This document shows, piece after piece, positions 2,311-50,935 of a stretch of DNA of 64,000 bases; position 1 is the first letter of the stretch, and each line of letters opens with the position of its first letter. This DNA comes from Thainema sp. GTDB taxonomy: Bacteria > Cyanobacteriota > Cyanobacteriia > Phormidesmidales > Phormidesmidaceae. The translations under genes and the position numbers were made by a program. The notes under the pieces are model-generated. The model had not been told where the DNA came from and made no database searches. It saw only the letters and a program-made list of their open reading frames with translations. Location of the stretch: positions 11,251 to 75,250 of the forward strand of contig JBQLZK010000037.1 of assembly GCA_052168235.1 (NCBI GenBank). The letters run 5' to 3'.

Positions 2311-3447
2311 TTAAATGCCACACTGTTTTAATTTCGCCATCCAGCGGCCAAATCCCTCCCGCCGAAATCGGGTCGGTTCCTTTTCCGTAGGTTCTAGCAC
2401 CTGCCAGCGATGCCAGGGTAAGTAACCTACCGGAATCGTGCTGTCTGAGACAATCTCAGGACTGAAGTTCAATTCATCAAACTTGAGCCAGTCGCCGTTT
2501 TGCTGCCAACCAACTGCGATCGCAAATTTGCCATAATCTTGATTGACGGCAGGACTTTCCCAAATCTGTCGCTGCACGGCGTAGCTAAATCGACCGTTAC
2601 TAGCCTTTTCCCACAAGGCATTTAAACGCTCCAGATCTGCACACGGCGGATCGAGTGCGATTTCTTCCCAGTTCGCGTCATATTTGGCATCGTTGAAAAG
2701 CACACTCGTTTCGGTTTCGGCGGTTTGCCAGTCTTGGTTTTCAAAGCTGGTTTCAAGCACGGCAGTCGGCACAAAGCAATCTCGTTGAGATACCTCCCCA
2801 GAGGGCAAGATTGTATTGCAAAGCCGGACATTATCCAACGCTGTAGATTCCGCTGGCAAAATCGCCTGCGTGAGATTAGCTTTGGCCAAAGTTATGGGTG
2901 GATGCTGCCAACCGCTTAAGTTAGCCCCCGTCAGGTCAGCATGGGCCAGGGTGACTCCTTCTAAGTTGGTACCGCTCAAGTTTGCGCCGCTCAGGTTAGT
3001 ATTCTCCATCACTGCGCCTTGTAAGTCGGCGTTGCTGAGGTTTGCGCCGCTGAGGTTGGCATACTGAAAGTTCACCCCCCGTAACACGGCTTCTGTAAAA
3101 TTCGCCTGTTCTGCAATGGTGGCTTGAAACAGCGCCCCGGATAAGTCCGCTCCCCGCAAATCAGCTTCTTCCAGGTAAGTCGCGCCACTGAAGTCTGTTC
3201 CCCGTAGATTGGCATTGCGCAAGTTAGCGCGATTGAGCCAAGCTTCCCGAAAGATGAGTCCGGACAGATCGGCACCCGCTAGATTTTTACCTGACCAGTC
3301 AACGGCGCGAAAGTCGGAAAAGCCGTCGCGGCTGCGGCTGCGCCAATCAATATTGGCAGGTCGCGTGAGCCAATAGAGGCCACCCGCGCCCAGTAATACT
3401 GCCAAAAGACCAACACCACCACAGCCAGCCAGAACCTTTTTCCACAT
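2311..3447 (-). CDS. Membrane-anchored pentapeptide-repeat protein with C-terminal GUN4-like domain
   Basis: N-terminal hydrophobic helix, many A(D/N)LxG pentapeptides, then W..AETET / PCADLERLNALWEKASNGRFSYAVQRQIW / GYLP GUN4-like motifs. Confidence 0.85.
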   Translation of the reverse strand: MWKKVLAGCGGVGLLAVLLGAGGLYWLTRPANIDWRSRSRDGFSDFRAVDWSGKNLAGADLSGLIFREAWLNRANLRNANLRGTDFSGATYLEEADLRGADLSGALFQATIAEQANFTEAVLRGVNFQYANLSGANLSNADLQGAVMENTNLSGANLSGTNLEGVTLAHADLTGANLSGWQHPPITLAKANLTQAILPAESTALDNVRLCNTILPSGEVSQRDCFVPTAVLETSFENQDWQTAETETSVLFNDAKYDANWEEIALDPPCADLERLNALWEKASNGRFSYAVQRQIWESPAVNQDYGKFAIAVGWQQNGDWLKFDELNFSPEIVSDSTIPVGYLPWHRWQVLEPTEKEPTRFRREGFGRWMAKLKQCGI

Positions 3448-3476: not shown

Positions 3477-4406
3477 TTACAGCGAAGCGGCGACGGGCAG
3501 TCTACTTTCTCCGGTAGCAAGCCAATGGGCACATTCTGGCCCCAATCGGCGTAGCGCTGTTTCCTCATACTTGGCGATATCTGCTGCCGTCAAGATATCC
3601 TTCCAGCGTCCATTTGTGCCTTTGTGAATAAACGTCTGGGCACCGCCTTCCCAGAAGGCTCCTTCCAGTGGTACGGTTTTGACCGCATGGTGCTTCATAT
3701 AGTCAAAGCTACAGTGTTCTAAAATCAGCGGCCATCGGGATGGTTCAATTTCGATATCCAAAAACTCAGCGATTTGCCGAATTTGCGTAGCCATATCCCG
3801 TTTTAGTGCGGCATAGTGCACCAGCTTGACGTTGGGTAAATGGCGAATGTCCCACCAGGATTTGACATTTTCCCAGTTTGACCAGAAAGGATAGCCATCT
3901 CCGTCTAGCCACTCTCGGAAATATTGCAGGACTGATGCAGGAGGATGCTCAATTGGTGGGCCAACTCGGCCAGGGGTTTCGTTGACCGCTTCGTACCAAG
4001 CGGCGTTGGCTTTGGCATGGTGGTTATATAGACTCCAGACAACATCGCGTCCATCCCGTGCAATGTACAGATACTTTGCCTGGGGCGAGAAGACAAGCGC
4101 GTCTACAGGTAAATGGGTTTTGATGAAGCGGCGATGGGTTTGAGCTTCTACGGCAGGCAGCTTAACCTCTTTGGGCGGGATACGCAGATCCAGCCAGGGA
4201 GACATGTCTGATACGTTAAGGTCTTCTGCACCGCTCCAGATTAGCTGAGCCACAATTTGCTGTAGCCAGGTGGTGCCGGATTTGGCGTAGCTGGCAATGA
4301 TAATGTCGTCGTTGCGAAACTGAAAATCATTCCAGACGGTGGAATCAAAGTGGTGATTGTGAATCTCCCGAACTTTTTGAGGCCACTGATGACTAACTTG
4401 GCTCAT
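3477..4406 (-). CDS. PAPS-dependent sulfotransferase (Sulfotransfer_1 family)
   Basis: 5'-PSB motif YAKSGTTW, IKTHLP, YIARDGRDVVWS, HKGTNGRWK. Confidence 0.9.
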   Translation of the reverse strand: MSQVSHQWPQKVREIHNHHFDSTVWNDFQFRNDDIIIASYAKSGTTWLQQIVAQLIWSGAEDLNVSDMSPWLDLRIPPKEVKLPAVEAQTHRRFIKTHLPVDALVFSPQAKYLYIARDGRDVVWSLYNHHAKANAAWYEAVNETPGRVGPPIEHPPASVLQYFREWLDGDGYPFWSNWENVKSWWDIRHLPNVKLVHYAALKRDMATQIRQIAEFLDIEIEPSRWPLILEHCSFDYMKHHAVKTVPLEGAFWEGGAQTFIHKGTNGRWKDILTAADIAKYEETALRRLGPECAHWLATGESRLPVAASL

Positions 4407-4445
4407 GACTGATTTCCTTTTCAAGTTACTAAATGTGTAGAAAAC

Positions 4446-4543
4446 CTCACATCTTGCTAAAACCCAAAAGGGTTATTATGCTGCCGCATCGCGGCGGCAT
4501 AATAATTTCTTCGGTTGTCAAAGTGCAAGGTGCAAGATGTGAG
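4446..4543. mobile_element. Small palindromic repeat/MITE-like element, CTCACATCTTGC family, copy 1
   Basis: Terminal inverted repeats CTCACATCTTGC/GCAAGATGTGAG, internal hairpin TTATTATGCTGCCGC-ATC-GCGGCGGCATAATAA; homologous to 25029-25104 in opposite orientation. Confidence 0.75.
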
Positions 4544-5137
4544 AAATTGCATGGTGCATGGTGCGAATTGAGATGTTGGAGAAGTGATTTGTTTTGTGTT
4601 GCAGTGACAAAGCGGCGGCAAAATTGCCCCGTCAATTGACTATAAAGGGGAGGAAAAACATATTCTGGATGGACAAAATTAATCTTTGGATTGCCTAAAG
4701 GTTTTGAGTAAAAGCGCATCCTGATGATGCCGATTCTAATCAATCCATAGATTTAGAGAAAACACAAGGATTTCGTAATGTCTTGTGAGGAAATCATCTG
4801 AGGCGTTAGGTATATTGACTCATCTTGGATGTAGAGCTAGCGGAGTAATAGGTCTTTTTAACCTACAAAATCTGAGTACTGCTTTCCGGAAAGCAGTACC
4901 AATAATAATTCGCTTTGCACTTTGGCAGATGTGCGATCGCACTTATCTAGCACACCTATCTAGCACACTTATCCAGCGATCTCTAAAACAAAACAAAAGC
5001 AACAGCTATCTATACTTAGTAGCTGTTGCTGATGATGCTTGAGTAACATTTCTTGTACTGTGACGATCAAGTTTCACAACACAAAAAATATTGCTGTTTG
5101 TTAATAAACCATTGCTTGTAGTAAAAGTTGCGATCGC

Positions 5138-7377: not shown

Positions 7378-7845
7378 ATGAGCAGAGTAATTCCAGAGCG
7401 GATGACCGTTGATATTGAAGGTGATTTTGTTGTCTTTTTAATTGGGCTGCGGATTAACAAAATCTGGAAAGCCCATAAGTGGCTACCCGCTTTTCTGGCT
7501 ATGCCGCGCATGATTCGGGAACTCCAGGCTGATCCAGATAGCGGTTTCCTGGGACATACGATGGGATTCCCTGTTATTGTTCAATACTGGCGGTCTTTCG
7601 AGCAGTTAGAAGCCTATGCCCGTAACCGTAACCAAGAACATTGGCCAGCCTGGGTCAATTTCAACCAGCGAGTCGGCAAAAGTCGCGGTGATGTTGGCAT
7701 TTGGCACGAAACCTACAAAGTTCGAGCCGGAGAATATGAGGCTGTCTATAGCGGTATGCCCGCTTTTGGTTTAGGAAAAGTCGGTCATCTGGTGTCCGCA
7801 ACAGGCAATAAAGAGGCCGCCCGCGATCGCATCTCTGCACCGTGA
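7378..7845 (+). CDS. DUF4188-like protein (putative monooxygenase/dehydratase fold)
   Basis: [51 protein letters not shown]. Confidence 0.8.
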
Positions 7846-7884
7846 GTACACGAGCCACTGGACAACTATTCTCAGCACTTGACA

Positions 7885-8012
7885 AGTGAGGAGTGAGGCG
7901 TAAGGAGTAAGGGCTGTAAAGGTCGTAAAGATTCCACGCCTGTCACCTAGTACCCAAAACCCAGAACCTAATACCCATCAACTAGCCTTCAGCCCTCAGC
8001 CTTACCCGCTTC
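7885..8012. repeat. Degenerate heptamer tandem repeats (STRR-like) between convergent genes
   Basis: AGTGAGG/CGTAAGG/AGTAAGG run, then ACCCAAA/ACCCAGA/ACCTAAT and GCCTTCA/GCCCTCA runs. Confidence 0.55.
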
Positions 8013-8250
8013 AAGACTGACGATAAACATTCTCTAGCCACCGTCGCTGCTCCTCCGTCGTTTCTAGATACGGTGAAAAGCGAGTGCTCATCCCGTAGCG
8101 ATAGGCGCGAATGTTGCTCCACTGACTGGAGTAAGCTGGGTCGTGAACCATGAAGCGAGTGAAGTGACGCCATCCGGTTCGAATGCTGTCCCAGAACCGA
8201 TTTGTTGATTTTGCCTGTGGCGCTTCTGTGCCATAAGATTGATTTTGCAT
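8011..8250 (-). CDS. Small cyanobacterial hypothetical protein
   Basis: GGAGG Shine-Dalgarno 5 nt before ATG; C-terminal EEQRRWLE..Y resembles a motif of small cyanobacterial hypotheticals. Confidence 0.6.
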   Translation of the reverse strand: MQNQSYGTEAPQAKSTNRFWDSIRTGWRHFTRFMVHDPAYSSQWSNIRAYRYGMSTRFSPYLETTEEQRRWLENVYRQS

Positions 8251-8809
8251 AACACCCTCCTTTTTAAGATTCTGTATATAGCATTACTATTTTATAATTT
8301 CTGCTCGAACTTGGCTTTATTCCTAAGAAGGATAATTGGGGAAGTTACGTCCTAATTTAGGCTAATTTAGGAACAGGCTTTGTAGGGCTACGGCATGCTG
8401 TGTCCCTATGGTGGGCTTGAGACCAAAACTGGAAAGGGCTTGGGTGCGAGCTGAATCTGCATTTGCCATGAACCTTACGGCAGTTCCTCTTCTTCCGGCC
8501 AGAACTTGTCGTCTATCCGCATCGGGGCATCGCGCCAGGTCAGGTTCAGCGTTTGGCAGCGGTGAATGGTAGCGGGTATCGGCATGTTGAGCGGATCGGC
8601 ATCGAGCCAATCCAGTAAAGACTGCCGTTGAGCGGCCTCTAGAACCGCAACGTTGAGAAAGCGATCCGCTGGATCAACTTCAGGTGCGATCGCAAGTCGA
8701 GGGCCAACCCGGCTTTCGACATTAATTTTTCAGATAATTTCGCGCTGGTTTCAGGAAATGCGCGTAGGTTGGTGGTTATAGATTGTGTCGATGCTTCAGG
8801 ATCAAGTGA

Positions 8810-9105
8810 ATGCCATTTGATATCGGTGCTTTTTTCCGGGCCTGTAATCCCAGCAAAACGCTAAATTTGACCGCTCCCGAGGATAAAAATACTACATCGA
8901 TTTTTCGGGCGTGCGGGGCAGCGATCTGGTGCGGGAAATGCAGCGCACAATCACCTTTTCTGGACAAGAACCGACCTGCCAGCTTTTTACTGGGCACATC
9001 GGCTGCGGCAAATCAACTGAGCTTTCACGCTTACAGCGAGAGTTAGAAGCCGATGGCTATCACGTGGTCTACTTTGAGTCCACCGATGACCTGGATATGG
9101 GCGAT
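8810..9105 (+). pseudogene. Frameshifted, 3'-truncated cyanobacterial P-loop ATPase
   Basis: Adding one A to the run at 8885-8889 joins two ORFs into MPFDIGAFFRACNPSKTL...EDKKYYIDFSGVRG...QLFTGHIGCGKSTEL...VVYFESTDDLDMGD; similarity stops there, before Walker B. Confidence 0.8.
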
Positions 9106-9191
9106 AGTATTCTGCCAAGTTCGATATAGCAAAAGCCATGATCTTGAAAATCATTTACGATTGGTGCAAATGTATTTAATTGAAACCAAGC

Positions 9192-12100
9192 ATGAGTCTT
9201 GCAGGAAAACGGTCAACTCAAGGTGACGAATACCAATTACGTGTGGCATTACATTGGCTGATACGTATGCTCGGGGATGATTCTATCTCCGGTATTCAAG
9301 TTGACTCAACTGGTATACCCGGACAAAGCTTTCCAATCACAGTTGATGATGTAGTTGTTTTATATGCAGACGGTCGTGCTTGCTTTATTCAAGTAAAGAA
9401 GAATCAGACTGATTATAAATCGTGGTCACTCGCTGATGAAATCTTAAAAGAAGAGCTAGAAAAAGCTCGTATACAGTTGGAGTCTAAAGAAAACTCGAAG
9501 GTCATTTTTTATTCTCGAACGCCTTTTGGAGAGTTAGAATCACTAGTTGAAGCCTGCAAAGCTTTTCCTGATTACGAATCATTCCTACGAGAGGATTCTA
9601 AAAAGCAGATCACTACTTTGAAGAAACTTGCAAGCATTATAGAAAGACCAGAAGAAGTAAATTTTAGTCTCGTTTTACGACTTAAATTTGGCCCACCACA
9701 TACATTTGAAGATTGGGATCGTTTAAATCGTATTGATTTGGAGCGTTTGTCCCCATCTGTTGATCTAGTAATACCAATTCTAGAGCGTTACTTAACCGGA
9801 CATGAAGCTACGCTAAAGGATACAAAACACATTATTAATCGCGAGGAAGTGTGGGCTGAACTAGGAATGTTGGGACTAAGACCAACGCCTGAGCGCAGTG
9901 AAACAGAAATTCTTGAAACTTTCAGGCTGGCTTCGAGAATTGGTCGTAATTGGTTATGCACAATTGATGATGAGAAAATTCCTCGTATTGAATTGAATCA
10001 AATCACTGAACTGATTGAACAGGACAACCGGACAATTTTATTGACAGATCGTCCTGGCAGTGGAAAAACCTGTTTATTGCTAGACTTAGTCAATGAGCTT
10101 GAGAATCAAGAAGCCTATGGGCTGTTGTTTATCAAAAGCGATCTATTTACAGAAATCAACAACGAACAAGATTTGGTAGATAGAGGATTACCAGAAGACA
10201 TCGTTGGCCAATGTGCTCGTCTGGCAAAATTTCGATCCGTTGTTGTTATTATTGATTCCCTTGATGAGCTTTCGCTAAGCCGACAACATAGTGCGCTTAA
10301 AGTATTCCTAGGGTTGATAGATAGGCTTGAAAAAATTGTGAGCATAACAGTCATTGCAGCATGTCGTGATTTTGATTTACAGTATGACCCTTTGCTACGA
10401 GGACGCTCATGGAAACACACTATTCATCTGTGTCCACTTGATTTTGAGTCTACTGTAAAACCCTTTCTCATTCGTTGGGGCATTGATCCATCTAGTATTA
10501 GTTCTGAACTTCGCGAGTTGTTGCAGCTACCACAGCATCTACGAATTTATGGGGAACTAGCGAAAGTTGGCAGATGTTTGAATCCTGCATCAGCTTATGA
10601 ACTTTATGACAGCTTCCTAAATGAAGTAATTGCTCTAAATTCAAGATTGGGAGATCAGGCTATAACTGCCCTTCAAGACATGGCAGATACCTTGATGCAA
10701 AGCCGTAGCCAATCTTTTAGCAGAACTAATTTTGCTGCAAGTGAAAACATAGTAAGGCTTCTAATTAGTCAGGAAATCCTATGGGATTCTTCTTCAGGTA
10801 GCTTATCTTTTAGCCATCAAACCTTAGCAGAATGCCTAGTTGTACGTTCTGCATTAGCTAAAAGTAAAACTTTGGTGGAATTTATTATCGACCACCCCCA
10901 GCTTCCTTTTATCCGTCCAGCAGTCCGAGCTTTTTTCTTTTTTCTACGGTCACACCAACCACAACTTTTTAGAAGACAAATTAGACAAGTTCTATCACAT
11001 AAGGAAATCGCTTACCATGTGAAGCGTTTAGTTTGTGAATCATTGGCTGAAATTATTCCTATAGAAGATGATTGGCGATTGTTTCGTAGAATCTTCCAGA
11101 ATTATCCTGACTTGTTTCGTCGTCTGTTAGTACGAACTCAGTCAACTGCTTGGCTGCATTTTCTCAAAAACTACTGGCTAGATGCTGCTCAAGCTTCGGA
11201 GGAGCGAGAAGATTGGCTACGTGAGTTTTGTTGGAAATTGCGAACATGGATAAACTCTGATGCTACAGAGGTTATTACTCTATGGCGGCAAGCAATTGCT
11301 TTTAATTGGTTTGATGAACAAAGACTAATCAGAATTATTCTTGGTGGATTGAACAACCTGCAAGATTGGAATGCTGAGGGTATTCGAGAACTGTTGGAAA
11401 TCTTAGTTAAAGATTCTGGTGATGAAAGAGACTCACTTGGCAGAATTATCAGTCAATGGGTACATGCCACAAACTCTGGTGATGATTTGCTATGGAGATA
11501 CATTACTAAAGATATTTTGCCTGAAGATCTCCAGAAATGGGATCTACGAGATAAGCTTCACTGCTCACCACATAATTTTCATCATGAGAGATTTTTAGAA
11601 GAACGTTTAAAGCAATCAGATCAATTGCTTACTCTAGTCTTAAAAGATTTAGCCCGCTGGAGCGAAATACGAATTGGTTTTCTCCAAGAAACTTCTTGGC
11701 ATATAGCACATAGTAAAATTGATATCTATCCAGTGACTGGTTTAACAGAAATTTTTTCTGGGGTAGAGGAAGCGTTAAAGCATAGAGCTCGTGAAAACGA
11801 TGCTTGGTGGAAGTTATATGAACCAAATTTACGTGATACTCAAGAACCATATCTTCGCTATCTAATTATTCAATCTTACAAAGAAAATATAGAAGAAAAT
11901 ATTTCTGGAATTGAGTTTCAACTTCAAGACCAAGAACTTATTTGTAATAGTGAACTTAGCTATGAATTAGGTGGACTTATGCAAATGAGCTACCCGTATA
12001 TCTCAGAAACTACACAGATCAATAACCAAACAATCATTCTCTCATCATGCGCCGTTCAAGAAAACGATCAAAATAGTTCATCCTTCTGGCAATATCGTAA

Positions 12101-13721
12101 AACTTATAATCTTCTTATTTGGATTTCTCCTTTCTTCAGAATTGCAGAAACACAGACTTTCATTGATACTTGGCAAAATCATTTTGGCTATAGCCAGCCC
12201 GAACCTGAAATTTATTCTAGAGGTGGAGCTATACTGCCACCTTTATCTAAAGAAAACTTGCTAAAGCTTTCAGATGAGTCTCTTTTTCGCCTATTGCAGT
12301 ATTATCAGCAGTATCTACACTCAGACTTTTTTGATCGTGATCTAGCTCGCGGTTTTAATGGCGTTGTGAGTATTCTGCGTGAAGCTTGCTCCTTGCATCC
12401 TATTCACTTTTTAGATTTATACTCTGGTTTTTTTGAGTCAGATTTACATGAAGCATATACACATGCTCTGATTGAAGGAATTTCAACACACTTGCTCTAT
12501 CGCTTTGGTGACGTGCGACCAAATCCAGAAAACGCATGGCAACCGATAGAACCTCTACCTGATAAAGAAGCACTTGCAGCAGGGCTGTTATATCTATTGG
12601 AACGGTATTCAATTATTTGGAAGGATGGCCGGGCAGTTAGTAGAGCTCTGGAAGCTTGTTGTGATGTATTAAATGATTCTAAATCATCTGAGCGTCTAAC
12701 ACTATTGCTCTTTTGGACTTGCTTTAAGTCTCTAGATGATGAGATAAATGAAATTAATGAGAAAAATCTTGTTTATCATGCTCTTAACTCGACTTTAGGA
12801 ATAGCTGCAAAAAGTGCAATTAAGCTTTGCAACAATCTTTTAGAAAAAGGCCAATCTTTACCAGAATTACTTCCATATTTGTTACATTACTTCTCACGTA
12901 ACACAGCTACCCATGTACGTATTCCTATCGTTGAACATCTTCCCTTCTTGATGTACAAGCAACCTGCTTTGGGATGGCAGTTGTTAGCTGATGTTTTTCA
13001 AAAACCTCAACCTTTGCTATGGAAGCATACAGAACAATGTTTTTACTATCAGTATCGAGATAACTTTCATCAGGTTGTTCCATATTTGGATCGTCTCTTA
13101 CACGAAGGAATAGACGAAGCTGGTGGTACTTGGGGCCGTATTTCTGCATTGGCTCATCTTGCAGGACATATCGAACAAGATCAGATATTTAATACGTTGG
13201 CAGATTTGAATGATGATGCATGGAGAGGAGTTATTCAGGTATTTTCAGCTAATCTCAATCGGTACGAGCATACCGCCAAGTGTCATTCTGGACTCATAAC
13301 TGCCTTGCATCAGGAAAGCTTACCAAACAGAGTTCTTAACGAAATTGAAAAATGTTTTGCTAAAGAAGCAAGTAAAGGACGCCGTGGATATGAACTTGCA
13401 GTTGCTTTTCTCAATAAACTTTCAATGTCTACAGATGGATATGATCTTTACGATTTTCTCGAATGGTTAAGTTATGAATCTCGACGTGATCCTTTGCAGG
13501 CTCTAGATATGGCTGAGCTTCTTGCTGAAAAGCTGGAAACGGAAATTCAATCAGATCAACTTTGGCATACTCAACCCTTGATTTCAGCACTAAACGAAAT
13601 CTTGCGCGAAGCAGATGAAACTGATGATCTAGATCTAATCAGACGTGCTATTGATTTACAAGATCGTTATCTGCAATTAAATATTTATGGAATTGAAGAA
13701 CTTTTTAATAAAGCTGGGTAA
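9192..13721 (+). CDS. Nuclease-STAND/NACHT-type ATPase, Avs (AVAST)/NLR-like anti-phage candidate
   Basis: N-terminal GDEYQ...VDDVVV...FIQVKK (PD-(D/E)xK, Cap4/Mrr-like); Walker A DRPGSGKT; Walker B VVVIIDSLDE; ACR sensor; FSHQTL winged-helix motif; about 900 aa helical C-terminus; AT-rich; no HIP1 seen. Confidence 0.8.
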   Translation: MSLAGKRSTQGDEYQLRVALHWLIRMLGDDSISGIQVDSTGIPGQSFPITVDDVVVLYADGRACFIQVKKNQTDYKSWSLADEILKEELEKARIQLESKENSKVIFYSRTPFGELESLVEACKAFPDYESFLREDSKKQITTLKKLASIIERPEEVNFSLVLRLKFGPPHTFEDWDRLNRIDLERLSPSVDLVIPILERYLTGHEATLKDTKHIINREEVWAELGMLGLRPTPERSETEILETFRLASRIGRNWLCTIDDEKIPRIELNQITELIEQDNRTILLTDRPGSGKTCLLLDLVNELENQEAYGLLFIKSDLFTEINNEQDLVDRGLPEDIVGQCARLAKFRSVVVIIDSLDELSLSRQHSALKVFLGLIDRLEKIVSITVIAACRDFDLQYDPLLRGRSWKHTIHLCPLDFESTVKPFLIRWGIDPSSISSELRELLQLPQHLRIYGELAKVGRCLNPASAYELYDSFLNEVIALNSRLGDQAITALQDMADTLMQSRSQSFSRTNFAASENIVRLLISQEILWDSSSGSLSFSHQTLAECLVVRSALAKSKTLVEFIIDHPQLPFIRPAVRAFFFFLRSHQPQLFRRQIRQVLSHKEIAYHVKRLVCESLAEIIPIEDDWRLFRRIFQNYPDLFRRLLVRTQSTAWLHFLKNYWLDAAQASEEREDWLREFCWKLRTWINSDATEVITLWRQAIAFNWFDEQRLIRIILGGLNNLQDWNAEGIRELLEILVKDSGDERDSLGRIISQWVHATNSGDDLLWRYITKDILPEDLQKWDLRDKLHCSPHNFHHERFLEERLKQSDQLLTLVLKDLARWSEIRIGFLQETSWHIAHSKIDIYPVTGLTEIFSGVEEALKHRARENDAWWKLYEPNLRDTQEPYLRYLIIQSYKENIEENISGIEFQLQDQELICNSELSYELGGLMQMSYPYISETTQINNQTIILSSCAVQENDQNSSSFWQYRKTYNLLIWISPFFRIAETQTFIDTWQNHFGYSQPEPEIYSRGGAILPPLSKENLLKLSDESLFRLLQYYQQYLHSDFFDRDLARGFNGVVSILREACSLHPIHFLDLYSGFFESDLHEAYTHALIEGISTHLLYRFGDVRPNPENAWQPIEPLPDKEALAAGLLYLLERYSIIWKDGRAVSRALEACCDVLNDSKSSERLTLLLFWTCFKSLDDEINEINEKNLVYHALNSTLGIAAKSAIKLCNNLLEKGQSLPELLPYLLHYFSRNTATHVRIPIVEHLPFLMYKQPALGWQLLADVFQKPQPLLWKHTEQCFYYQYRDNFHQVVPYLDRLLHEGIDEAGGTWGRISALAHLAGHIEQDQIFNTLADLNDDAWRGVIQVFSANLNRYEHTAKCHSGLITALHQESLPNRVLNEIEKCFAKEASKGRRGYELAVAFLNKLSMSTDGYDLYDFLEWLSYESRRDPLQALDMAELLAEKLETEIQSDQLWHTQPLISALNEILREADETDDLDLIRRAIDLQDRYLQLNIYGIEELFNKAG

Positions 13722-13839
13722 TTTTGATACACCATAAACTCAACTAAGAGGTCATGAGAAAAGGATTTGAGTGCTAAGCACATCCTGAGTCGATTGAGAC
13801 TCATGTCTGCCAGTAGCGGATTCGCCAACTCCTGGGAAT

Positions 13840-13862
13840 TTATTGCATATTATTCTCAATAA
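13840..13862. promoter_or_regulatory. Candidate Fur box
   Basis: TTATTGCATATTATTCTCAATAA, an AT-rich inverted repeat resembling the Fur consensus, just before a TAAGCT -10-like hexamer and upstream of an IsiC-like gene. Confidence 0.55.
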
Positions 13863-13879
13863 GCTGCTAAGCTATGGAT

Positions 13880-13976
13880 TAGCCACTAATCGCTGAAAAT
13901 ATTGCACTGGCGCATGGCCATGCGCCCCTACGAATATCTGTTCTGTATGTGCCACATTCAACTTGATTAACGGCTA
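13880..13976. repeat. Small repeat element with imperfect terminal IRs and an internal REP-like palindrome
   Basis: TAGCCACTAATC...GATTAACGGCTA ends; perfect palindrome GGCGCATGGCCATGCGCC (13909-13926) followed by CCTAC. Confidence 0.55.
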
Positions 13977-14026
13977 CTGAATCGCAGTTTAACGAGAATA
14001 CTTTTTAATTGTGTGGGAGAAACAGC

Positions 14027-14773
14027 ATGTCTACTATCGCCTCTAATATCACCGATGCCCTGTGGCTGAGCGTCAATCCCAGCTTTGTGGATTTCCATAA
14101 ACCACTACTGCGAGAGCTGGCGCAGGATAGCGCGATCGCACATTGGGAATATTCCCAAACCCAAGACGAACCCTGTTCGCTGGAGAAAGCATTGGTGCTG
14201 CTGCATGATTATTTGAAAAATCGCGATCGCAAAATTCATCTAATCGGCCACAGCACTGGCGGACTGCTGGGCCTGCGCTATGCGCGGCGGTATCCAGAGC
14301 GGGTGCAGTCGCTGACGCTGCTTTCCGTTGGCGTTAACCCCACCGTGGACTGGCAGGCACACTACTACGTGCAGCGGCAGTTGCTCCCCTGTAGCCGCTC
14401 GATTGTGATGGCGCAGATGGTGCGGCATATGTTCGGCCCCCAAAGCTGTCGCCGAGCCAAAGGCTTAATTAAGCTGCTGGAGCGGGATTTGGCAACGTCT
14501 CCGGCTCCCCATAGCCTGCTGCGCCGCGAGCATCTCTCACCCGGTCGCGTCCAGGTTCCCCTGCTCGTTTGTGGAGGAGACAACGACCTGATTGTCGATT
14601 CCAATCAAATCGACCACTGGCGACCCTGGCTGAAAGAATGCGATCGCATTTGGCATTGTCCCAACGGTCGCCACTTTTTTCATGCTGAACACCCAGAAGC
14701 CGTGGGGGCGCAAATTCGCGATTTTTGGCAATTGGCATCGGTTGCTCGACCTGTGAAGCAATCAGTGGCCTGA
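14027..14773 (+). CDS. Alpha/beta hydrolase, IsiC-like
   Basis: Nucleophile elbow GHSTGG, acid D in GGDNDLIV, His in GRHFFH; N-terminal LWL..NPSF..F...LL and QDEPCSL motifs; GGGAGA SD. Confidence 0.8.
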   Translation: MSTIASNITDALWLSVNPSFVDFHKPLLRELAQDSAIAHWEYSQTQDEPCSLEKALVLLHDYLKNRDRKIHLIGHSTGGLLGLRYARRYPERVQSLTLLSVGVNPTVDWQAHYYVQRQLLPCSRSIVMAQMVRHMFGPQSCRRAKGLIKLLERDLATSPAPHSLLRREHLSPGRVQVPLLVCGGDNDLIVDSNQIDHWRPWLKECDRIWHCPNGRHFFHAEHPEAVGAQIRDFWQLASVARPVKQSVA

Positions 14774-15379
14774 AGTTCGCTGGCTGGTAATGAGCTGAAT
14801 CAGGCTCTCCGTCAGCACGTCCGGCTCAATCGGGGCAACCTGCTGACCGTGCAGAATGTGCTGCGTCATGGCATAGCTCATTAATGTGCCCGTAAAAATC
14901 CGCGCTGTGGCCTCTGGATGGGGCAAGTTTAACTCTGGGTGAGCCGCAAAGTACTGGCTGAGTACATGCCACACCTTTTGCGGCAGCGCCTTGACAAAGA
15001 GCTTTGCCAGCTCCGGGAAGCGACCCGACTCACCAATAATCAATCGCAGAAAAGCCACATACTCTTCATCACCACTGACCAGCTGCATAAACTTTTGGGC
15101 AATGTGATGCAGGACATGAGCCGGATCTTCCGTCAAAGACAGCGTGCCAAAAACCTGATTAAATCGCTGACGAGTAACCTGCTCAATCAGCGCTACAAAC
15201 AGCCCTTCCTTATCCTCGAAATGCTTATAGATGGTGATTTTGGAGACCCCAGCAGCAGCAGCAACCCGATCCATGCTGGTGCCTTCATATCCCTGATGCA
15301 GGAAAATTTTGAGCGCTCCTTGTAGAATTTGCTGACGCTTTGCTGTGGTTCCAGCCGAGCTAATCGAGGATGAAGCCAT
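14762..15379 (-). CDS. TetR/AcrR family transcriptional regulator
   Basis: HTH GYEGTSMDRVAAAAGVSKITIYKHFEDKEGLF; IIGESGRFPELAKLF C-terminal motif. Confidence 0.93.
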   Translation of the reverse strand: MASSSISSAGTTAKRQQILQGALKIFLHQGYEGTSMDRVAAAAGVSKITIYKHFEDKEGLFVALIEQVTRQRFNQVFGTLSLTEDPAHVLHHIAQKFMQLVSGDEEYVAFLRLIIGESGRFPELAKLFVKALPQKVWHVLSQYFAAHPELNLPHPEATARIFTGTLMSYAMTQHILHGQQVAPIEPDVLTESLIQLITSQRTSGH

Positions 15380-22989: not shown

Positions 22990-23937
22990 ATGGCATTGGC
23001 TATGAGCTTTGATATCAAACTTCTCTACGTATGGCTTGTTCTATTTATCGTTTTCTTTGTTTGGCGGATACTGACACACCCCTTGAATCGCATTCATCGT
23101 GCTGCAATGGGAGGTGACATTGAGACAGTAAAACAATGCTTGGATAAAGGAGTTGCGCCAGATACCCGCAAAGGAGAAGGCTTGACACCGCTCTGTCTGT
23201 CTGCGGCAAAAGGTCACAAAGAGATTGTAGAACTGCTGCTTGATTATGGTGCGGATGCTAATCAGGGCTTAGATGAAGAAGATGGAATGAATCCTCTTCT
23301 AGAAGCTGCCCTTAAAGAACAAACCGAGGTAGTTGAAACGTTAGTGAATCGGGGTGCTGTAGTCGGACTCCATTTTTCAGCCTATCAAGGTGATTTAACT
23401 ACAGTACGAGAACAGCTTCAACAAGGCGCTGCAATTAATTCAATGCGAAACCGGGGAATGACTCCGCTTCATCTTGCAGCATTGGGAGGCCATGTAGAGG
23501 TCGTCAAGTTCCTATTAAATCAGGGTGCTGATGTCAATGCTTACGCCTACCTCAGTGAAACCCCACTGCATATAGCGATTAGACAGCATCAGCGAGATAT
23601 TATTCAACTACTCATCGAGTCTGGTGCAGACCTGAATCGGTCAGGAAGATTAGGTTCCCCGCTTTGTATAGCAGTTCGTGAAAACGCAGAAGATCTTGTT
23701 CAGTTATTGATAGATAGTGGAGCAGATGTCGTTGGCCGTGAGAACAAAAAACCGCCTTTACATCTAGCAGTAAAAAAGGGTTCTGTAAACATTGCTCGGT
23801 TGCTGCTTGAAAACGGGGCAGAAGTGAATCTTCGGAGTCGGTGGGGCAACATTCCATTAGATTATCTGGCACAACATGATTTGGACATGGCTGATTTACT
23901 AGTTAGCTATGGGGCAAATGCTAATGCTAAAAATTAG
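22990..23937 (+). CDS. Ankyrin repeat protein with N-terminal TM anchor
   Basis: About 8 TPLH.A...G..E.V..LL..GAD.N repeats after a hydrophobic N-terminus. Confidence 0.92.
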   Translation: MALAMSFDIKLLYVWLVLFIVFFVWRILTHPLNRIHRAAMGGDIETVKQCLDKGVAPDTRKGEGLTPLCLSAAKGHKEIVELLLDYGADANQGLDEEDGMNPLLEAALKEQTEVVETLVNRGAVVGLHFSAYQGDLTTVREQLQQGAAINSMRNRGMTPLHLAALGGHVEVVKFLLNQGADVNAYAYLSETPLHIAIRQHQRDIIQLLIESGADLNRSGRLGSPLCIAVRENAEDLVQLLIDSGADVVGRENKKPPLHLAVKKGSVNIARLLLENGAEVNLRSRWGNIPLDYLAQHDLDMADLLVSYGANANAKN

Positions 23938-23982
23938 GTTTCGCCAAACTCCATTGGCATTATTAGATTTTGAGAGGAGATC

Positions 23983-24510
23983 GTGCATTTTTACAGACCC
24001 AAACCATTACCAGACGACTACGATTCTCTCCAGATTGTCAGAAGTAGTGATCTTCATTGGTTTATAAATTACCGAAGGCAGTATTATGCAAATGGAATTG
24101 AGGAGCCTTGGGAATCTGTATTAACTGAAGTTGTTTCACGAGGTAAGTCAGGAGATTTCCCTAGCTTTTCTGCCCTAGATCCTGTCTTTAGTGAGAGAGC
24201 CTTGAACTACCTGGAAGATTTGCTTTCAGGTAGTATAGAGGCTCTTCCATTGAGAACAGCAAAAAATGATATTTTCTTTTATATAAAGGTTCTCGATAAA
24301 TTGGATTGTCTAGACTACGAACGCTCAATTTGGAAGCAAAATCCTTCTGGCCTAGTTATGGTCGAATCTTATGTTTTTCACGAAAAGTTAGTCAGAGAGA
24401 AGCATATTTTTTGGCTACCTCGTGTAAATCAATTTATTGTTTCGGAATCGTTTAAAGAGCTGGTTGAACGGTGTTCGTTAGAAGGGCTAACCTTCCAACA
24501 AATTACGTAG
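23983..24510 (+). CDS. Imm11/DUF1629-like immunity protein
   Basis: GDFP, VFSERA...L..LL...IEALPL, VL..LDCLDYERS, YVF, HIF, FIVSE.FKELVE...L.GL.F; GAGAGGAG SD before GTG. Confidence 0.7.
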   Translation: MHFYRPKPLPDDYDSLQIVRSSDLHWFINYRRQYYANGIEEPWESVLTEVVSRGKSGDFPSFSALDPVFSERALNYLEDLLSGSIEALPLRTAKNDIFFYIKVLDKLDCLDYERSIWKQNPSGLVMVESYVFHEKLVREKHIFWLPRVNQFIVSESFKELVERCSLEGLTFQQIT

Positions 24511-47155: not shown

Positions 47156-50100
47156 GTGACAACGCTAAAGGCTTCATCAGTTGGACATTCGCAAATTAAA
47201 CAGGCACGACGCGCCAAAGGCTGGCCTGTGAATGATTTCAAGTGGATAGAAGCAGCCAGTCAGATACTTGGTACCGTTTGGGAGGAGACAGGGGTGCTGG
47301 CTCCCGGTGTCTCAGAAGGAACCTGGAAGCGATTCCTGGCGGGCAAGGTGCCGATTAACGCCGAGGCGTTCAAAGCTTACTGCCAGGTGTTGGAGCTGGA
47401 CTGGACTGCGATCGCAGAACTCGATCCAGAACTTGATCCAGAACCCGTCACCGAACTAGAACCACCGCAGGCAAATTCATCTAGCTGCGCGACGAATCCA
47501 GATAACTCAACGAATGTTGTTTACCTGCGCAATCACGCTAGCCCGACCTACGTTACGAGTCCTCCCGATCCGCTTGTTGAAGCGAATCTCCTCAAGCAGC
47601 GTGCAGTGGCAGCGCTACCCACTCGACAGGACTGGAGCAATGCGCCTGACGTTTCCATATTCTATGGTCGTCAGGCTGAACTGGAAACGGTGCAGCGCTG
47701 GATTACTCAGGATCGCTGTCGGTTGGTGACGCTGCTGGGCATGGGCGGCATCGGCAAAACGGCGCTGTCGGTTAAGCTGGCTCGTCAAATTGTGGCTCAG
47801 CAAAAGCAGCGGACGGCGGGGGATCAGCCGTTTACCTATGTCATCTGGCGCTCGCTGCGCAATGCGCCCTCCGTGGACGAAATGCTGGCCGATCTGATTC
47901 AGTTCCTATCGGATCAGCAGGTGACGGATTTGCCAGCGGATGCAGATGGTCGGTTGGCGTTGTTGCTTCAGTATCTACGGACTAATCGCTGCCTGATCAT
48001 GCTCGACAATGCTGAGTCAATCCTCAAAAGCGGCGATCGCATGGGCCGCTATCGGGTGGGCTATGAGGGGTATGAAGCCCTGCTGCGCTGTGTGGCGGAA
48101 ACGACTCATCAAAGCTGTCTGGTAATTACCTCACGGGAAAAGCCCAAGGGGCTGACGGCGTTTGAGGGGGAAACGCTACCCGTGCGATCACTCCAGCTCA
48201 GCGGCCTGCCGGAGGCGGACGGGCGAGAGCTATTTAACGTTAAAGGTTCGTTCACAGCGACGGACGCGGAGTGGCAGACTCTGATTGAGCGCTATGCAGG
48301 CAATCCCCTAGCGCTGAAGATTGTCGCATCCTCGATTCACGACTTTTTTGACAGTGATGTTTCGCAGTTTTTAGCCATCTCGCAGCAGAGCGCTTTCCTA
48401 TTCGACGACATTCGCGACTTGCTGGATCAGCATTTTCAGCGCCTGACGGTTCTAGAGAAGTCGGTGATGTACTGGTTGGCAATCAATCGGGAACCGACAT
48501 CGATCTCTGATTTACAGGCTGATTTCTTAATCAATGTATCCCCCCGTGACCTGCTGGAATCCTTGAATTCTCTACAGCGCCGCTCCCTAGTTGAAAAAGG
48601 TGCCGCTGGCATGACGCAGCAGCCTGTGGTGATGGAATACGTAATTAATCAGCTGATCGAACGAATTAGCGATGAGATAACCGGGCAGACGGTTGATCTG
48701 TTTAAGAGTCATGCCCTGACCAAAGCCCAGGCCAAAGAGTACGTCAGGGAAACACAGCTCAATCTGATTGTGCAGCCGATTATGGATCAGCTACTGAATC
48801 AGTTGGGCAGTAGAGATGCGATCGCAACTGCTCTCCAATCTATTCTCGCTCAGCTCCGGGGCAGAACGCCTCAGGAGACGGGCTATGCGGGCGGCAATGC
48901 GTTAAATTTACTGCTCCAGCTTGGAGTTGATCTGACGGGCTATGATTTTTCGCGGCTAAGCGTGTGGCAAGCTTACCTACAAGATGTAAAGCTGCACGGT
49001 ATCGACTTTACGGGTTCCGATTTGTCCAACTGCGTGTTTACCGAGTCACTAGGAAACGTGCTGTGGGCTACCTTCAGTCCAGATGGAGAGCGGCTTGCTA
49101 CCTGCGACACGGATTGCCAAGTGCGGGTGTGGGATGTGCAAACGGGGCAGCTTGTGCTGATCTGTCGTGGTCATGCCAACTGGGTGAGGCATGTCACCTT
49201 TAGTCCTGATGGTCGGATGATCGCGAGCTGTGGTGCGGATCAAACGGTGCGACTGTGGACTGCTCAGGATGGAGTCTGCATTAAAACTCTGGCGGGTCAT
49301 GATCATGAAGTGTTTGCTGTCGCCTTCAGTCCCGATGGTCAGCTTCTCGCCAGTGCAGGCGGTGACTGTACGATTAAGCTCTGGGACGTGCAGGATGGGC
49401 AGTGTATTCAAACGCTGACGGGACATACAGACTGGGTGCGGACGGTAGTTTTTGCGCCATATTCTAGTCAGAATGCTGCTCAAAATTCACAGCCCCTGCT
49501 GCTAGCTAGTGGCGGAGCCGATCAGCAAATCAAGCTCTGGGATGCGGCTACCGGGCAGTGTTTACAGACCTTGAGTGGGCATCAGGGCTGGGTGCGATCG
49601 CTAACCTTTAGTCGCGATGGCCAACTCCTAGCTAGCGGCAGTGGCGATCAGCAAATTAAGCTCTGGGACTGTAGTACAGGCGACTGTCTATCCACCTACG
49701 ACGGCCACAGCAGCGGCGTTTACTGCGTTGTTTTTAGCCCCACAGCCGACATATTAATCAGCAGCAGCGGCGATCGCACCGTCAAACTCTGGGACTGGCA
49801 TACAGATACCTGCCTCAAAACCTTATCGGGACAGAGCAATGAGGTTTGCTCCATCGATATTCATCCTGACGGTCGCCGCTTAGTCTGCGTCAGCCTCGAT
49901 CAGACGGTGAAGCTGTGGGACTGCCAAACCGGACAGTGTTTACGCACCTGGGATGGCCACACGGATTGGGCTTTGCCCGTTGCCTTCAGCCCCGATGGTC
50001 AAATCCTCGCTAGCGGTAGCAATGATAAATCCGTCGTGCTGTGGAACTGGCAAACCGGACAGCAGCAAATGGCTTTATACGGCCATACGGATTTCGTTTA

Positions 50101-50935
50101 CGCCGTCGCCTTCAGTGCCGATGGTCAAATCCTGGCCAGCGGCAGCACAGACCTAACCGTGCGGCTGTGGCGTACTGATACAGGACAGTGTGTGCAAGTC
50201 TTGCAGGGCCATACCGATTGGATTAATGCGATCGCATTTCATCCCAGCGAGTTTACCCTGGCAACGGCTAGCGCCGACGCTACAGTCAAGCTGTGGAACT
50301 GTCAGACGGGCCAGTGTATTCGGACTTTGACGGGACACGTCGGTAAACTGCTCGGCGTCAGCTTTAGTCCCGATGGATCACTGCTGGCGAGCTGCGGCAT
50401 TGACCAAACCATTAAGTTATGGGCAACCGATACAGGTGAGTGCCTGAACACTTTGCAGGGTCATGCCAGCCGCGTTTGGTCGGTCGTCTTTAGCCCAGAT
50501 GGTAAACTGCTAGCGAGCAGCAGTACGGATCAAACGATTCGCCTCTGGAGCGTCAAGTCGGGCAAGTGCCGCAAAATCCTGACGGGACATACAAATTGGG
50601 TGTTTGCCTTGGCCTTTAGTCCTGATAGTCAAACTCTTGCTAGTGCATCGCATGATCAGACGGTACGGATCTGGCAAGTGCAAACGGGCGAATGCCTGCA
50701 TGTCTGTACTGACCATGCTCACTTGGTTTCATCGGTTGCTTTTAGTCCCGATGGCAGCGCGATCGCAAGTGGTTCACAGGATCAAACCGTTCGCATCTGG
50801 GATGCGGCATCTGGTGAGTGTTTGCGGGTGCTGATTGCCAAGCGGCTCTATGAAGGGATGAAGATTACTGGCGTAACGGGTTTAACGCCCGCGACAATGA
50901 CAACGCTGCAAATGCTGGGTGCAGTTGTTGAATAA
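47156..50935 (+). CDS. HTH + NB-ARC (STAND) + pentapeptide + WD40 repeat protein
   Basis: GVSEGTWKRFLAG HTH-like N-terminus, FYGR..EL, GMGGIGKT, MLDNAE, ITSRE, GNPLAL, about 14 GH...V..FSPDG..LAS...D.T..LW repeats, LYEGM.ITG.TGLT tail. Confidence 0.92.
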   Translation: MTTLKASSVGHSQIKQARRAKGWPVNDFKWIEAASQILGTVWEETGVLAPGVSEGTWKRFLAGKVPINAEAFKAYCQVLELDWTAIAELDPELDPEPVTELEPPQANSSSCATNPDNSTNVVYLRNHASPTYVTSPPDPLVEANLLKQRAVAALPTRQDWSNAPDVSIFYGRQAELETVQRWITQDRCRLVTLLGMGGIGKTALSVKLARQIVAQQKQRTAGDQPFTYVIWRSLRNAPSVDEMLADLIQFLSDQQVTDLPADADGRLALLLQYLRTNRCLIMLDNAESILKSGDRMGRYRVGYEGYEALLRCVAETTHQSCLVITSREKPKGLTAFEGETLPVRSLQLSGLPEADGRELFNVKGSFTATDAEWQTLIERYAGNPLALKIVASSIHDFFDSDVSQFLAISQQSAFLFDDIRDLLDQHFQRLTVLEKSVMYWLAINREPTSISDLQADFLINVSPRDLLESLNSLQRRSLVEKGAAGMTQQPVVMEYVINQLIERISDEITGQTVDLFKSHALTKAQAKEYVRETQLNLIVQPIMDQLLNQLGSRDAIATALQSILAQLRGRTPQETGYAGGNALNLLLQLGVDLTGYDFSRLSVWQAYLQDVKLHGIDFTGSDLSNCVFTESLGNVLWATFSPDGERLATCDTDCQVRVWDVQTGQLVLICRGHANWVRHVTFSPDGRMIASCGADQTVRLWTAQDGVCIKTLAGHDHEVFAVAFSPDGQLLASAGGDCTIKLWDVQDGQCIQTLTGHTDWVRTVVFAPYSSQNAAQNSQPLLLASGGADQQIKLWDAATGQCLQTLSGHQGWVRSLTFSRDGQLLASGSGDQQIKLWDCSTGDCLSTYDGHSSGVYCVVFSPTADILISSSGDRTVKLWDWHTDTCLKTLSGQSNEVCSIDIHPDGRRLVCVSLDQTVKLWDCQTGQCLRTWDGHTDWALPVAFSPDGQILASGSNDKSVVLWNWQTGQQQMALYGHTDFVYAVAFSADGQILASGSTDLTVRLWRTDTGQCVQVLQGHTDWINAIAFHPSEFTLATASADATVKLWNCQTGQCIRTLTGHVGKLLGVSFSPDGSLLASCGIDQTIKLWATDTGECLNTLQGHASRVWSVVFSPDGKLLASSSTDQTIRLWSVKSGKCRKILTGHTNWVFALAFSPDSQTLASASHDQTVRIWQVQTGECLHVCTDHAHLVSSVAFSPDGSAIASGSQDQTVRIWDAASGECLRVLIAKRLYEGMKITGVTGLTPATMTTLQMLGAVVE

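Follow-up and report, generated by a model that had tools for sequence, protein, structure and literature searches.

The 64-kb stretch of Thainema sp. DNA analyzed here (contig JBQLZK010000037.1; hereafter the window) raises the question of what kind of antiviral receptor is encoded by one long gene on its forward strand, at 9192..13721, and what that receptor might sense. An initial annotation had described the gene as a single-gene, NLR-like Avs system that joins a PD-(D/E)xK nuclease to a STAND NTPase and a helical sensor, and it had left the subtype unassigned. This description holds up, as the encoded protein aligns over its full length with SeAvs7, the Avs7 protein of Salmonella enterica, and keeps its catalytic and nucleotide-binding residues. 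On this homology, membership in the Avs7 family is close to certain, and the subtype is Avs7. We put at roughly 80% the probability that the gene encodes a functional Avs7-family antiviral STAND (NLR-like) receptor that was acquired horizontally from another cyanobacterium.

Family assignment and domain architecture

A homolog search with the window protein returned 189 proteins, mostly ~1500 amino acids (aa) in length, from cyanobacteria, Gemmatimonadota, Desulfobulbales, and Magnetococcales. When a 31-member family profile was compared to the PDB, the SeAvs7 chain 9n00_A (1523 aa) was matched over positions 1-1522 with 1230 bits. Entries 9n01 and 9yix were likewise matched, and the remaining PDB matches had E > 0.005. 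The protein alone aligned with SeAvs7 in two halves, residues 1-698 with SeAvs7 1-699 (E 1.9e-105) and residues 701-1502 with SeAvs7 702-1514 (E 7.3e-95). The two proteins (1509 and 1523 aa) share the same architecture of Cap4-type nuclease, STAND NTPase, and large helical sensor and are collinear from the first residue to no more than 10 residues short of either C-terminus.

Family scans of the single sequence did not reveal the subtype. Pfam found AAA (E 1.7e-6) together with weak NACHT and nSTAND5 matches, and an NCBIfam scan of the protein gave nothing over noise. In PADLOC, which the initial annotation had suggested as a check, the LmuA model matches residues 12-294 (E 1.6e-8), and no Avs/AVAST model matched the protein at E ≤ 1. 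In the Atlas, the nearest named clusters of the nuclease domain are Cap4_nuclease sets (17/30 named hits, score 0.92). Because homology to the solved SeAvs7 domain, the LmuA model, and the Atlas lead point the same way, we take the N-terminal domain to be a Cap4-like PD-(D/E)xK nuclease. The earlier proposal had depended on a PD-(D/E)xK match at the N-terminus, and this region indeed aligns to the SeAvs7 Cap4 domain. By the same kind of comparison, the C-terminal region is a homolog of the Avs7 sensor, the domain that defines the family.

The open reading frame (ORF) runs from the ATG at 9192 to the stop at 13721 (+), comprising 1509 codons plus the stop without interruption; the ORF list and the translation agree exactly with the coordinates first given. 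The long frame in the ORF list is 9180..13721 (+), with a translation that starts LKPSMSLAGKRS, and a TTG at 9180 used as an alternative start would give 4 more residues. We took ATG 9192 as the start because P0002, the database representative (100% identity, 1509 aa), and the homologs, which open with MS.AG, begin there. Residue numbers are counted from this codon throughout.

Within this frame, the SeAvs7 alignment and the motif residues GDEYQ (E13), VDDVVV (D52, D53), and IQVKK (Q67, K69) place the putative Cap4-like nuclease effector at ~residues 1-170 (9192..9701, +; boundary approximate). It is followed, by alignment, by an effector-NTPase linker at ~residues 171-243 (9702..9920, +) that holds the counterpart of the SeAvs7 regulatory loop. 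Pfam and conserved residues place the STAND NTPase module (NBD-HD1-WHD) at ~residues 244-600 (9921..10991, +; C-terminal boundary approximate), with Walker A DRPGSGKT (D286...K292, T293), Walker B IIDSLDE (D355, D358), and the WHD histidine motif FSHQTL (H542). The nuclease, Walker A, Walker B, and FSHQTL motifs are all found in the translation where the initial annotation had put them. The remainder, ~residues 601-1509 (10992..13718, +), is by alignment the homolog of the bilobed Avs7 TPR sensor. Its length agrees with the ~900 aa originally proposed for a helical C-terminus, and its helicity is suggested by the alignment to the solved SeAvs7 TPR sensor.

For the Avs7 family, the trigger, cofactor, structure, and mechanism have been in print since 2026 (Lee et al., Nature 657:735, PMC13581612; preprint bioRxiv 10.64898/2026.01.04.697583). 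By the initial annotation's own reckoning, this removes novelty only.

Three related systems were considered and rejected for this locus: Avs3 (AVAST type III), Dsr1 (defense-associated sirtuin 1), and Lamassu. Gao et al. (2022) reportedly described Avs3 as a receptor of Cap4 nuclease, STAND, and TPR parts that responds to the large terminase of phages. The window protein resembles Avs3 in its N-terminal Cap4-type nuclease and STAND NTPase, and Avs3 tetramerizes on a phage protein to activate DNA cleavage (bioRxiv 10.64898/2026.01.04.697583). However, beyond the lack of any Avs/AVAST match in PADLOC, no Avs3 PDB chain was matched by the family profile at E ≤ 1, and SeAvs7 is the only PDB match below E 0.005. 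Avs3 and Avs7 are further described as differing in sensor, Cap4 tetramer geometry, and regulatory loop (bioRxiv 10.64898/2026.01.04.697583). EcDsr1 has an Avs7-type sensor and is also capsid-triggered (bioRxiv 10.64898/2026.01.04.697583). The window protein differs from it in having a STAND NTPase; Pfam finds AAA, NACHT, and nSTAND and detects no SIR2 domain, and PADLOC gave no Dsr match. The matches of the N-terminal domain to the LmuA model and to the Cap4_nuclease Atlas sets recall Lamassu LmuA and CBASS Cap4, but here the nuclease shares one polypeptide with a STAND NTPase and a sensor, and Pfam identified neither an adjacent SMC-like (LmuB) gene nor a CBASS cyclase among the window neighbors.

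Conserved residues, trigger, and cofactor

PDB entry 9N00 is apo SeAvs7, and in 9N01 and 9YIX SeAvs7 is bound to EF-Tu and the major capsid protein of ZL19 (bioRxiv 10.64898/2026.01.04.697583). In E. coli, SeAvs7 protects against Drexlerviridae phages, and the major capsid protein was its sole activator in a gene-library screen (PMC13581612). EF-Tu co-purifies with SeAvs7 and boosts assembly, nuclease activity, and defense (PMC13581612). The active form is an asymmetric tetramer that uses the Cap4 nuclease domains as a scaffold and degrades dsDNA, and inactivation of the nuclease abolishes both defense and toxicity (PMC13581612). In apo SeAvs7, H545 contacts a bound ADP, and in the tetramer ATP is bound instead, its γ-phosphate facing R395 (bioRxiv 10.64898/2026.01.04.697583).

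By analogy with SeAvs7, we infer a trigger, cofactor, oligomeric state, and outcome for the window protein. At rest it would be a monomer, autoinhibited and bound to ADP. The bilobed helical sensor (~residues 601-1509) would clamp newly made HK97-fold phage major capsid protein, possibly with the assistance of host EF-Tu. The NTPase would then be released and exchange ADP for ATP, with K292/T293, D355, R392 (ATP γ-phosphate), and H542 (ADP) as the predicted contacts. Tetramerization would assemble the N-terminal Cap4-type PD-(D/E)xK nuclease (D52, D53, Q67, K69), which would degrade dsDNA and so abort the infection. Capsid sensing by the window protein is likely on the homology of its sensor, and the "uncharacterised cyanophage protein" of the initial annotation is expected to narrow to a cyanophage HK97-fold capsid protein.

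To what extent are the residues behind this scheme conserved? A one-genome-per-species scan identified 80 loci, 61 of which carry a complete homolog; the 19 incomplete ones were left out, giving a 62-row alignment of the window protein and 61 homologs. Correspondences to SeAvs7 were read from the pairwise alignments and checked on the translation. SeAvs7 K291/T292, D358, R395, and H545 equate to K292/T293, D355, R392, and H542, and the autoinhibitory R367 equates to R364. K292, D355, D358, R392, and H542 are invariant in all 62 rows, and T293 and R364 are present in 60 and 61 of them, respectively; every ATP/Mg and ADP contact residue of the STAND NTPase described for SeAvs7 is matched in the window protein. 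The nuclease residues D52/D53/Q67/K69 are retained in 53/56/56/55 of the 62 rows, the exceptions being rows with other effectors or cut N-termini. All three capsid hydrogen-bond residues that the SeAvs7 authors mutated (N1204, Y1289, and N1361) are identical in the window protein, as N1199, Y1285, and N1356. The nucleotide-binding residues, WHD histidine, nuclease motif, and probed capsid contacts of SeAvs7 are in this way all shared. The alignment reaches the C-terminus, where the window protein stops 2-3 residues short of its nearest relatives and of the SeAvs7-like rows; the C-terminal helix of Avs7 is reported to be conserved in length and to clash with the NBD upon activation (bioRxiv 10.64898/2026.01.04.697583).

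As a proxy for SeAvs7 in this comparison we used a Tolumonas protein, L092 (2163 bits to 9n00_A; another protein, P0137, scores 2142 bits). It shows the SeAvs7 pattern of a Gly-first P-loop, Q-D-x-H-D EF-Tu contacts, and N-Y-N capsid contacts. A search via the Tolumonas homolog returned no Salmonella-named match among the best 120 of 938. A midpoint-rooted FastTree phylogeny of the NTPase and sensor regions (1298 columns, 62 rows) places the window protein as sister to a protein of Leptolyngbya sp. JSC-1 (69% identity, support 100), and both fall within a cyanobacterial clade of 13 rows (support 100). We note that the deep relations in this tree are unsure, with several long branches.

Several observations weigh against a functional receptor that works as SeAvs7 does. 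Pfam Cap4_nuclease reaches only E 0.024 with the window protein, under the cut-off, and matches just one of the 31 aligned family members at E ≤ 0.01. Identity to L092 is 32% overall, and by region it is 36% in Cap4, 19% in the linker (the least conserved segment), 40% in the NTPase, and 30-32% in the sensor. Among the large regions the sensor has diverged most, and the protein may therefore differ in the trigger it recognizes. The first Gly of the P-loop is replaced by Asp (D286), as in 39 of the 62 rows. The SeAvs7 EF-Tu contacts Q999, D1003, K1044, H1048, and D1059 correspond to Q988, D992, R1033, Y1037, and D1048, meaning that three of five are identical, K1044 is changed conservatively to Arg, and H1048 is changed to Tyr. 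Confident EF-Tu complex predictions are limited to SeAvs7's own clade in the preprint (bioRxiv 10.64898/2026.01.04.697583), and in our tree the SeAvs7-like rows form the other major branch, together with two further cyanobacterial rows. Two points from outside the protein belong with these. The window neighbors are ordinary by Pfam (MFS, monooxygenase, hydrolase, TetR, and an HlyD-ABC exporter), none of them a defense gene, and the RNA-library contigs that resemble the gene, being ~95% alike, represent a related allele and are no proof of transcription in this strain.

The divergence could indicate that the protein is an Avs7-type receptor from a cyanobacterial clade with a different trigger or without EF-Tu, sensing another conserved cyanophage protein, or the capsid protein with a different host cofactor or none. 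The low identity of the sensor to SeAvs7-like proteins and the restriction of the published EF-Tu predictions to one clade point this way, as does the contact pattern itself, which is Q/D/R/Y/D in the window protein and Q/D/[KRH]/H/D in the SeAvs7-like clade. The counterpart of the SeAvs7 regulatory loop 199-215, which regulates Cap4, is 6 residues shorter, which counts on the same side. The cyanobacterial clade departs from the SeAvs7 clade in the same features, with an Asp-first P-loop, EF-Tu contacts changed from Lys to Arg or Gln and from His to Tyr, and the loop shortened by 6 residues. However, Q988, D992, and D1048 are retained, the three mutated capsid contacts are identical, and sensors of the Avs7 type are reported to detect capsid even in architectures as unrelated as Dsr1 (bioRxiv 10.64898/2026.01.04.697583). 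We consider a departure of this kind unlikely and favor a capsid-triggered Avs7 receptor. The comparison with SeAvs7 does cross hosts: the window protein belongs to a cyanobacterium, and so would meet other phages and another EF-Tu.

Foreign origin and the insertion site

The gene stands out from its surroundings in composition. As the initial annotation had remarked, it is AT-richer than its flanks, with a GC content of 0.386 compared to 0.494 in the remaining window and a GC content at third codon positions (GC3) of 0.275 compared to 0.55-0.61 in six neighboring genes. The cyanobacterial octamer HIP1, GCGATCGC, occurs 73 times in the 64 kb versus 1.46 times expected from shuffles; with sites this dense, the host is recognizable as a cyanobacterium rich in HIP1, and stretches free of them can serve as a convenient sign of foreign DNA. 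Inside the gene there are no HIP1 sites, as first noted for these 4.5 kb, compared to 5.6 expected at the density outside it (Poisson P ~0.004), and the gene lies within the longest HIP1-free gap of the window, 8694-14131.

The gene is present as a single copy in its own 7.5-Mb genome and was found in none of 40 others searched (one from its genus, a further 23 from its family, and 16 from its class), the majority being ≥ 90% complete. Core syntenic orthologs, which would have spoken against a transferred defense gene, were not what we found, as the gene occurs in 1 of the 41 genomes searched, its own included. Together with the foreign composition and the interruption of a conserved locus, this agrees with the horizontal acquisition first proposed.

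The interruption is visible by comparison with the same-genus genome (G001). The flanks of the insert, window 8013-8714 and 14061-14774, correspond to 2358-3069 and 4126-4839 of its locus L012, where they lie 1057 bp apart. The interval there contains an intact 299-aa DAGK/YegS-like gene with DAGK_cat and YegS_C domains (L012 2764..3663, -). In the window, what is left of this lipid kinase gene is a 3′ remnant at 8421..8714 (-), covering residues 199-296 of 299 (tblastn, 80% identity). The host DAGK/YegS-like gene was destroyed upon arrival of the foreign DNA. The segment 8715..14060, which by the flank matches has no counterpart in G001, comprises a pseudogene remnant, the Avs7 cassette, and a 340-bp low-GC spacer.

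The pseudogene remnant at 8810..9105 (+) derives from a 451-codon gene for a STAND-like P-loop ATPase, of which codons 1-99 survive (tblastn with the gene of another genome, G012; 88% identity). It carries one frameshift near 8887-8890, residues 1-27 being in one frame and 27-99 in another, has weak nSTAND5, NPHP3_N, and AAA_22 hits, and ends just before the cassette. In G012, the intact homolog adjoins an nSTAND1-WD40 gene. DNA homology to the copy of JSC-1, the nearest relative with a name, spans 9128..13706 (+; blastn, 71% over 4637 columns) and probably delimits the transferred cassette. It begins 64 bp upstream of the ATG, just past the stop codon of the ATPase remnant and at the remnant's 3′ edge, and stops within the last codons of the gene. 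The simplest reading of these boundaries is that at least two successive events occurred at the site, the last of which would be the insertion of a cassette of approximately the gene plus 64 bp upstream.

At the insert ends we observed only short, low-identity direct or inverted repeat pairs, which we judged to be chance, and we saw no integrase or transposase in the insert, no Rfam family at E ≤ 0.1 in 7800-14500, and no tRNA in 1-24000. Among cyanobacterial relatives, gene GC ranges from 0.36 to 0.44, which equals the flanks in Nostocales-type genomes and lies below them in higher-GC hosts, a pattern consistent with circulation from low-GC cyanobacteria.

A variant reading of the locus is serial STAND replacement, in which a DAG-kinase-like gene and an earlier STAND-like ATPase were cut short in turn before Avs7 was inserted. 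Such replacement suggests that the site may be a defense-gene turnover hotspot without recognizable mobile-element machinery. In a broader and unlikely hypothesis, the site would be a small hotspot of this kind and the cyanobacterial clade would be a mechanistic variant of Avs7 that senses capsid without EF-Tu or with another host factor.

Could the gene instead be an inactive relic, recently acquired and unexpressed or non-functional in its host? The strongly foreign codon composition (GC3 0.275) and the two adjoining gene remnants would suit a relic, and no consensus promoter was found upstream. We note that the promoter scan itself, with 4 sites versus 13.4 expected and none upstream of the ATG, was judged uninformative, as was the count of terminator-like sites (8 versus 4.1 expected). 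One of the latter, a hairpin of 10 pairs followed by a T-run at 8696-8720 (+), lies at the left-hand junction of the foreign DNA.

The RNA evidence is weak as well. Five sequencing runs showed small word shares (0.08-0.14), and contigs ~95% alike were assembled at low depth from three metatranscriptome runs of one study, spanning 12202-13633 only; the uncovered 5′ two thirds of the gene carries no weight in this assessment. Contigs matching the gene were absent from the DNA run, four of the five runs having been compared. On the other hand, the reading frame of 1509 codons is unbroken, all of the catalytic and nucleotide-binding residues that were checked are kept, the 64 bp upstream are conserved with the JSC-1 copy, and an allele 95% alike does appear in RNA-library contigs. 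We give the relic hypothesis hardly any credence and prefer an intact, functional receptor. Downstream of Avs7, an alpha/beta-hydrolase gene at 13808-14400 reached a depth of ~4000 in one metatranscriptome run, compared to 2-10 for the 3′ part of Avs7.

Effector exchange and genomic context of the family

The Avs7 sensor is reported to be paired with at least 20 N-terminal effectors and to have undergone extensive horizontal transfer (bioRxiv 10.64898/2026.01.04.697583). The 13-row cyanobacterial clade shows variety of this kind. Cap4 N-termini are present in 7 rows, the window protein included, caspase N-termini in five (L022-L025 and L028), and a PNP_UDP_1 phosphorylase N-terminus in L074; trypsin N-termini occur in metagenomic relatives. 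In the effector-swapped relatives, the alignment to the window protein starts at residues 172-236. We counted this swapping among close relatives toward the Avs7 assignment because the paper describes such swapping for Avs7.

Two members are of separate interest for their N-termini. In L074 (4972-9858), from a Synechococcales metagenome-assembled genome, the PNP_UDP_1 domain, of the nucleoside phosphorylase superfamily, sits on the Avs7 core in place of a nuclease. Burkholderiaceae bacterium UC74_6 encodes a 1968-aa member (L067 4585-10488) with a long N-terminal extension that has weak matches to FAD/NAD(P)-binding oxidoreductases.

We also surveyed the surroundings of the gene in 12 cyanobacterial relatives. 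In 9 of the 12 loci, flanking proteins (16 of 80 in all) match PADLOC models at E ≤ 1e-8, a count that includes some generic models and carries no background control. The matches include DISARM DrmA/DrmB by L022, IetA by L014, and caspase/CHAT proteins.

The same caspase-bearing relatives bear on the possibility that the window gene is a non-defense STAND protein, serving programmed cell death or signaling in a filamentous cyanobacterium without any phage trigger. In cyanobacteria, STAND and caspase proteins without an assigned role are numerous, close relatives of the window protein carry caspase effectors, and the window contains a second STAND gene, with WD40 repeats. However, full-length homology links the protein to a receptor whose anti-phage function has been proven by experiment, its patchy distribution reflects transfer and not conservation within a lineage, and several relatives have defense-type neighbors. 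We regard a role outside defense as very improbable and retain the antiviral assignment.

Other features of these loci deserve mention. In an uncultured cyanobacterium (L022 1-10620), a caspase-headed Avs7-type gene lies directly downstream of the DISARM genes drmA and drmB. On plasmid2 of Nostoc carneum NIES-2107 (L023 2087-14674), another caspase-headed Avs7-type gene has large caspase-domain proteins on both sides. The second STAND protein of the window, at 47156-50932 (+), is 1259 aa long, with an NB-ARC/NACHT-type NTPase at ~170-390 followed by ~13 WD40 repeats; its outline resembles that of Apaf-1, and its GC is not obviously foreign. At 22990-24507 (+), the gene for an ankyrin-repeat protein (315 aa) is directly followed by one for a protein of 175 aa that carries an Imm11 immunity-protein domain; the two may belong to a locus for polymorphic toxins or immunity.

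For this cyanobacterium, the finding is that one intact Avs7 receptor was added to the genome, at a time dated after the split from its same-genus relative. Later 2026 preprints among the literature matches listed already term Avs7 well characterized, and beyond the variety of effectors and the host, the assignment is routine annotation of a family whose trigger and mechanism are in print. The variety lies in nuclease, caspase, trypsin, and phosphorylase effectors on one conserved core inside a cyanobacterial clade. As to the host, the published Avs7 experiments are enterobacterial, with Salmonella Avs7 assayed in E. coli against Drexlerviridae phages (PMC13581612), and cyanobacteria are the subject of no title among the "Avs7" literature matches listed. 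The cyanobacterial clade would therefore offer a natural test of capsid sensing and EF-Tu recruitment in other hosts and against other phages.

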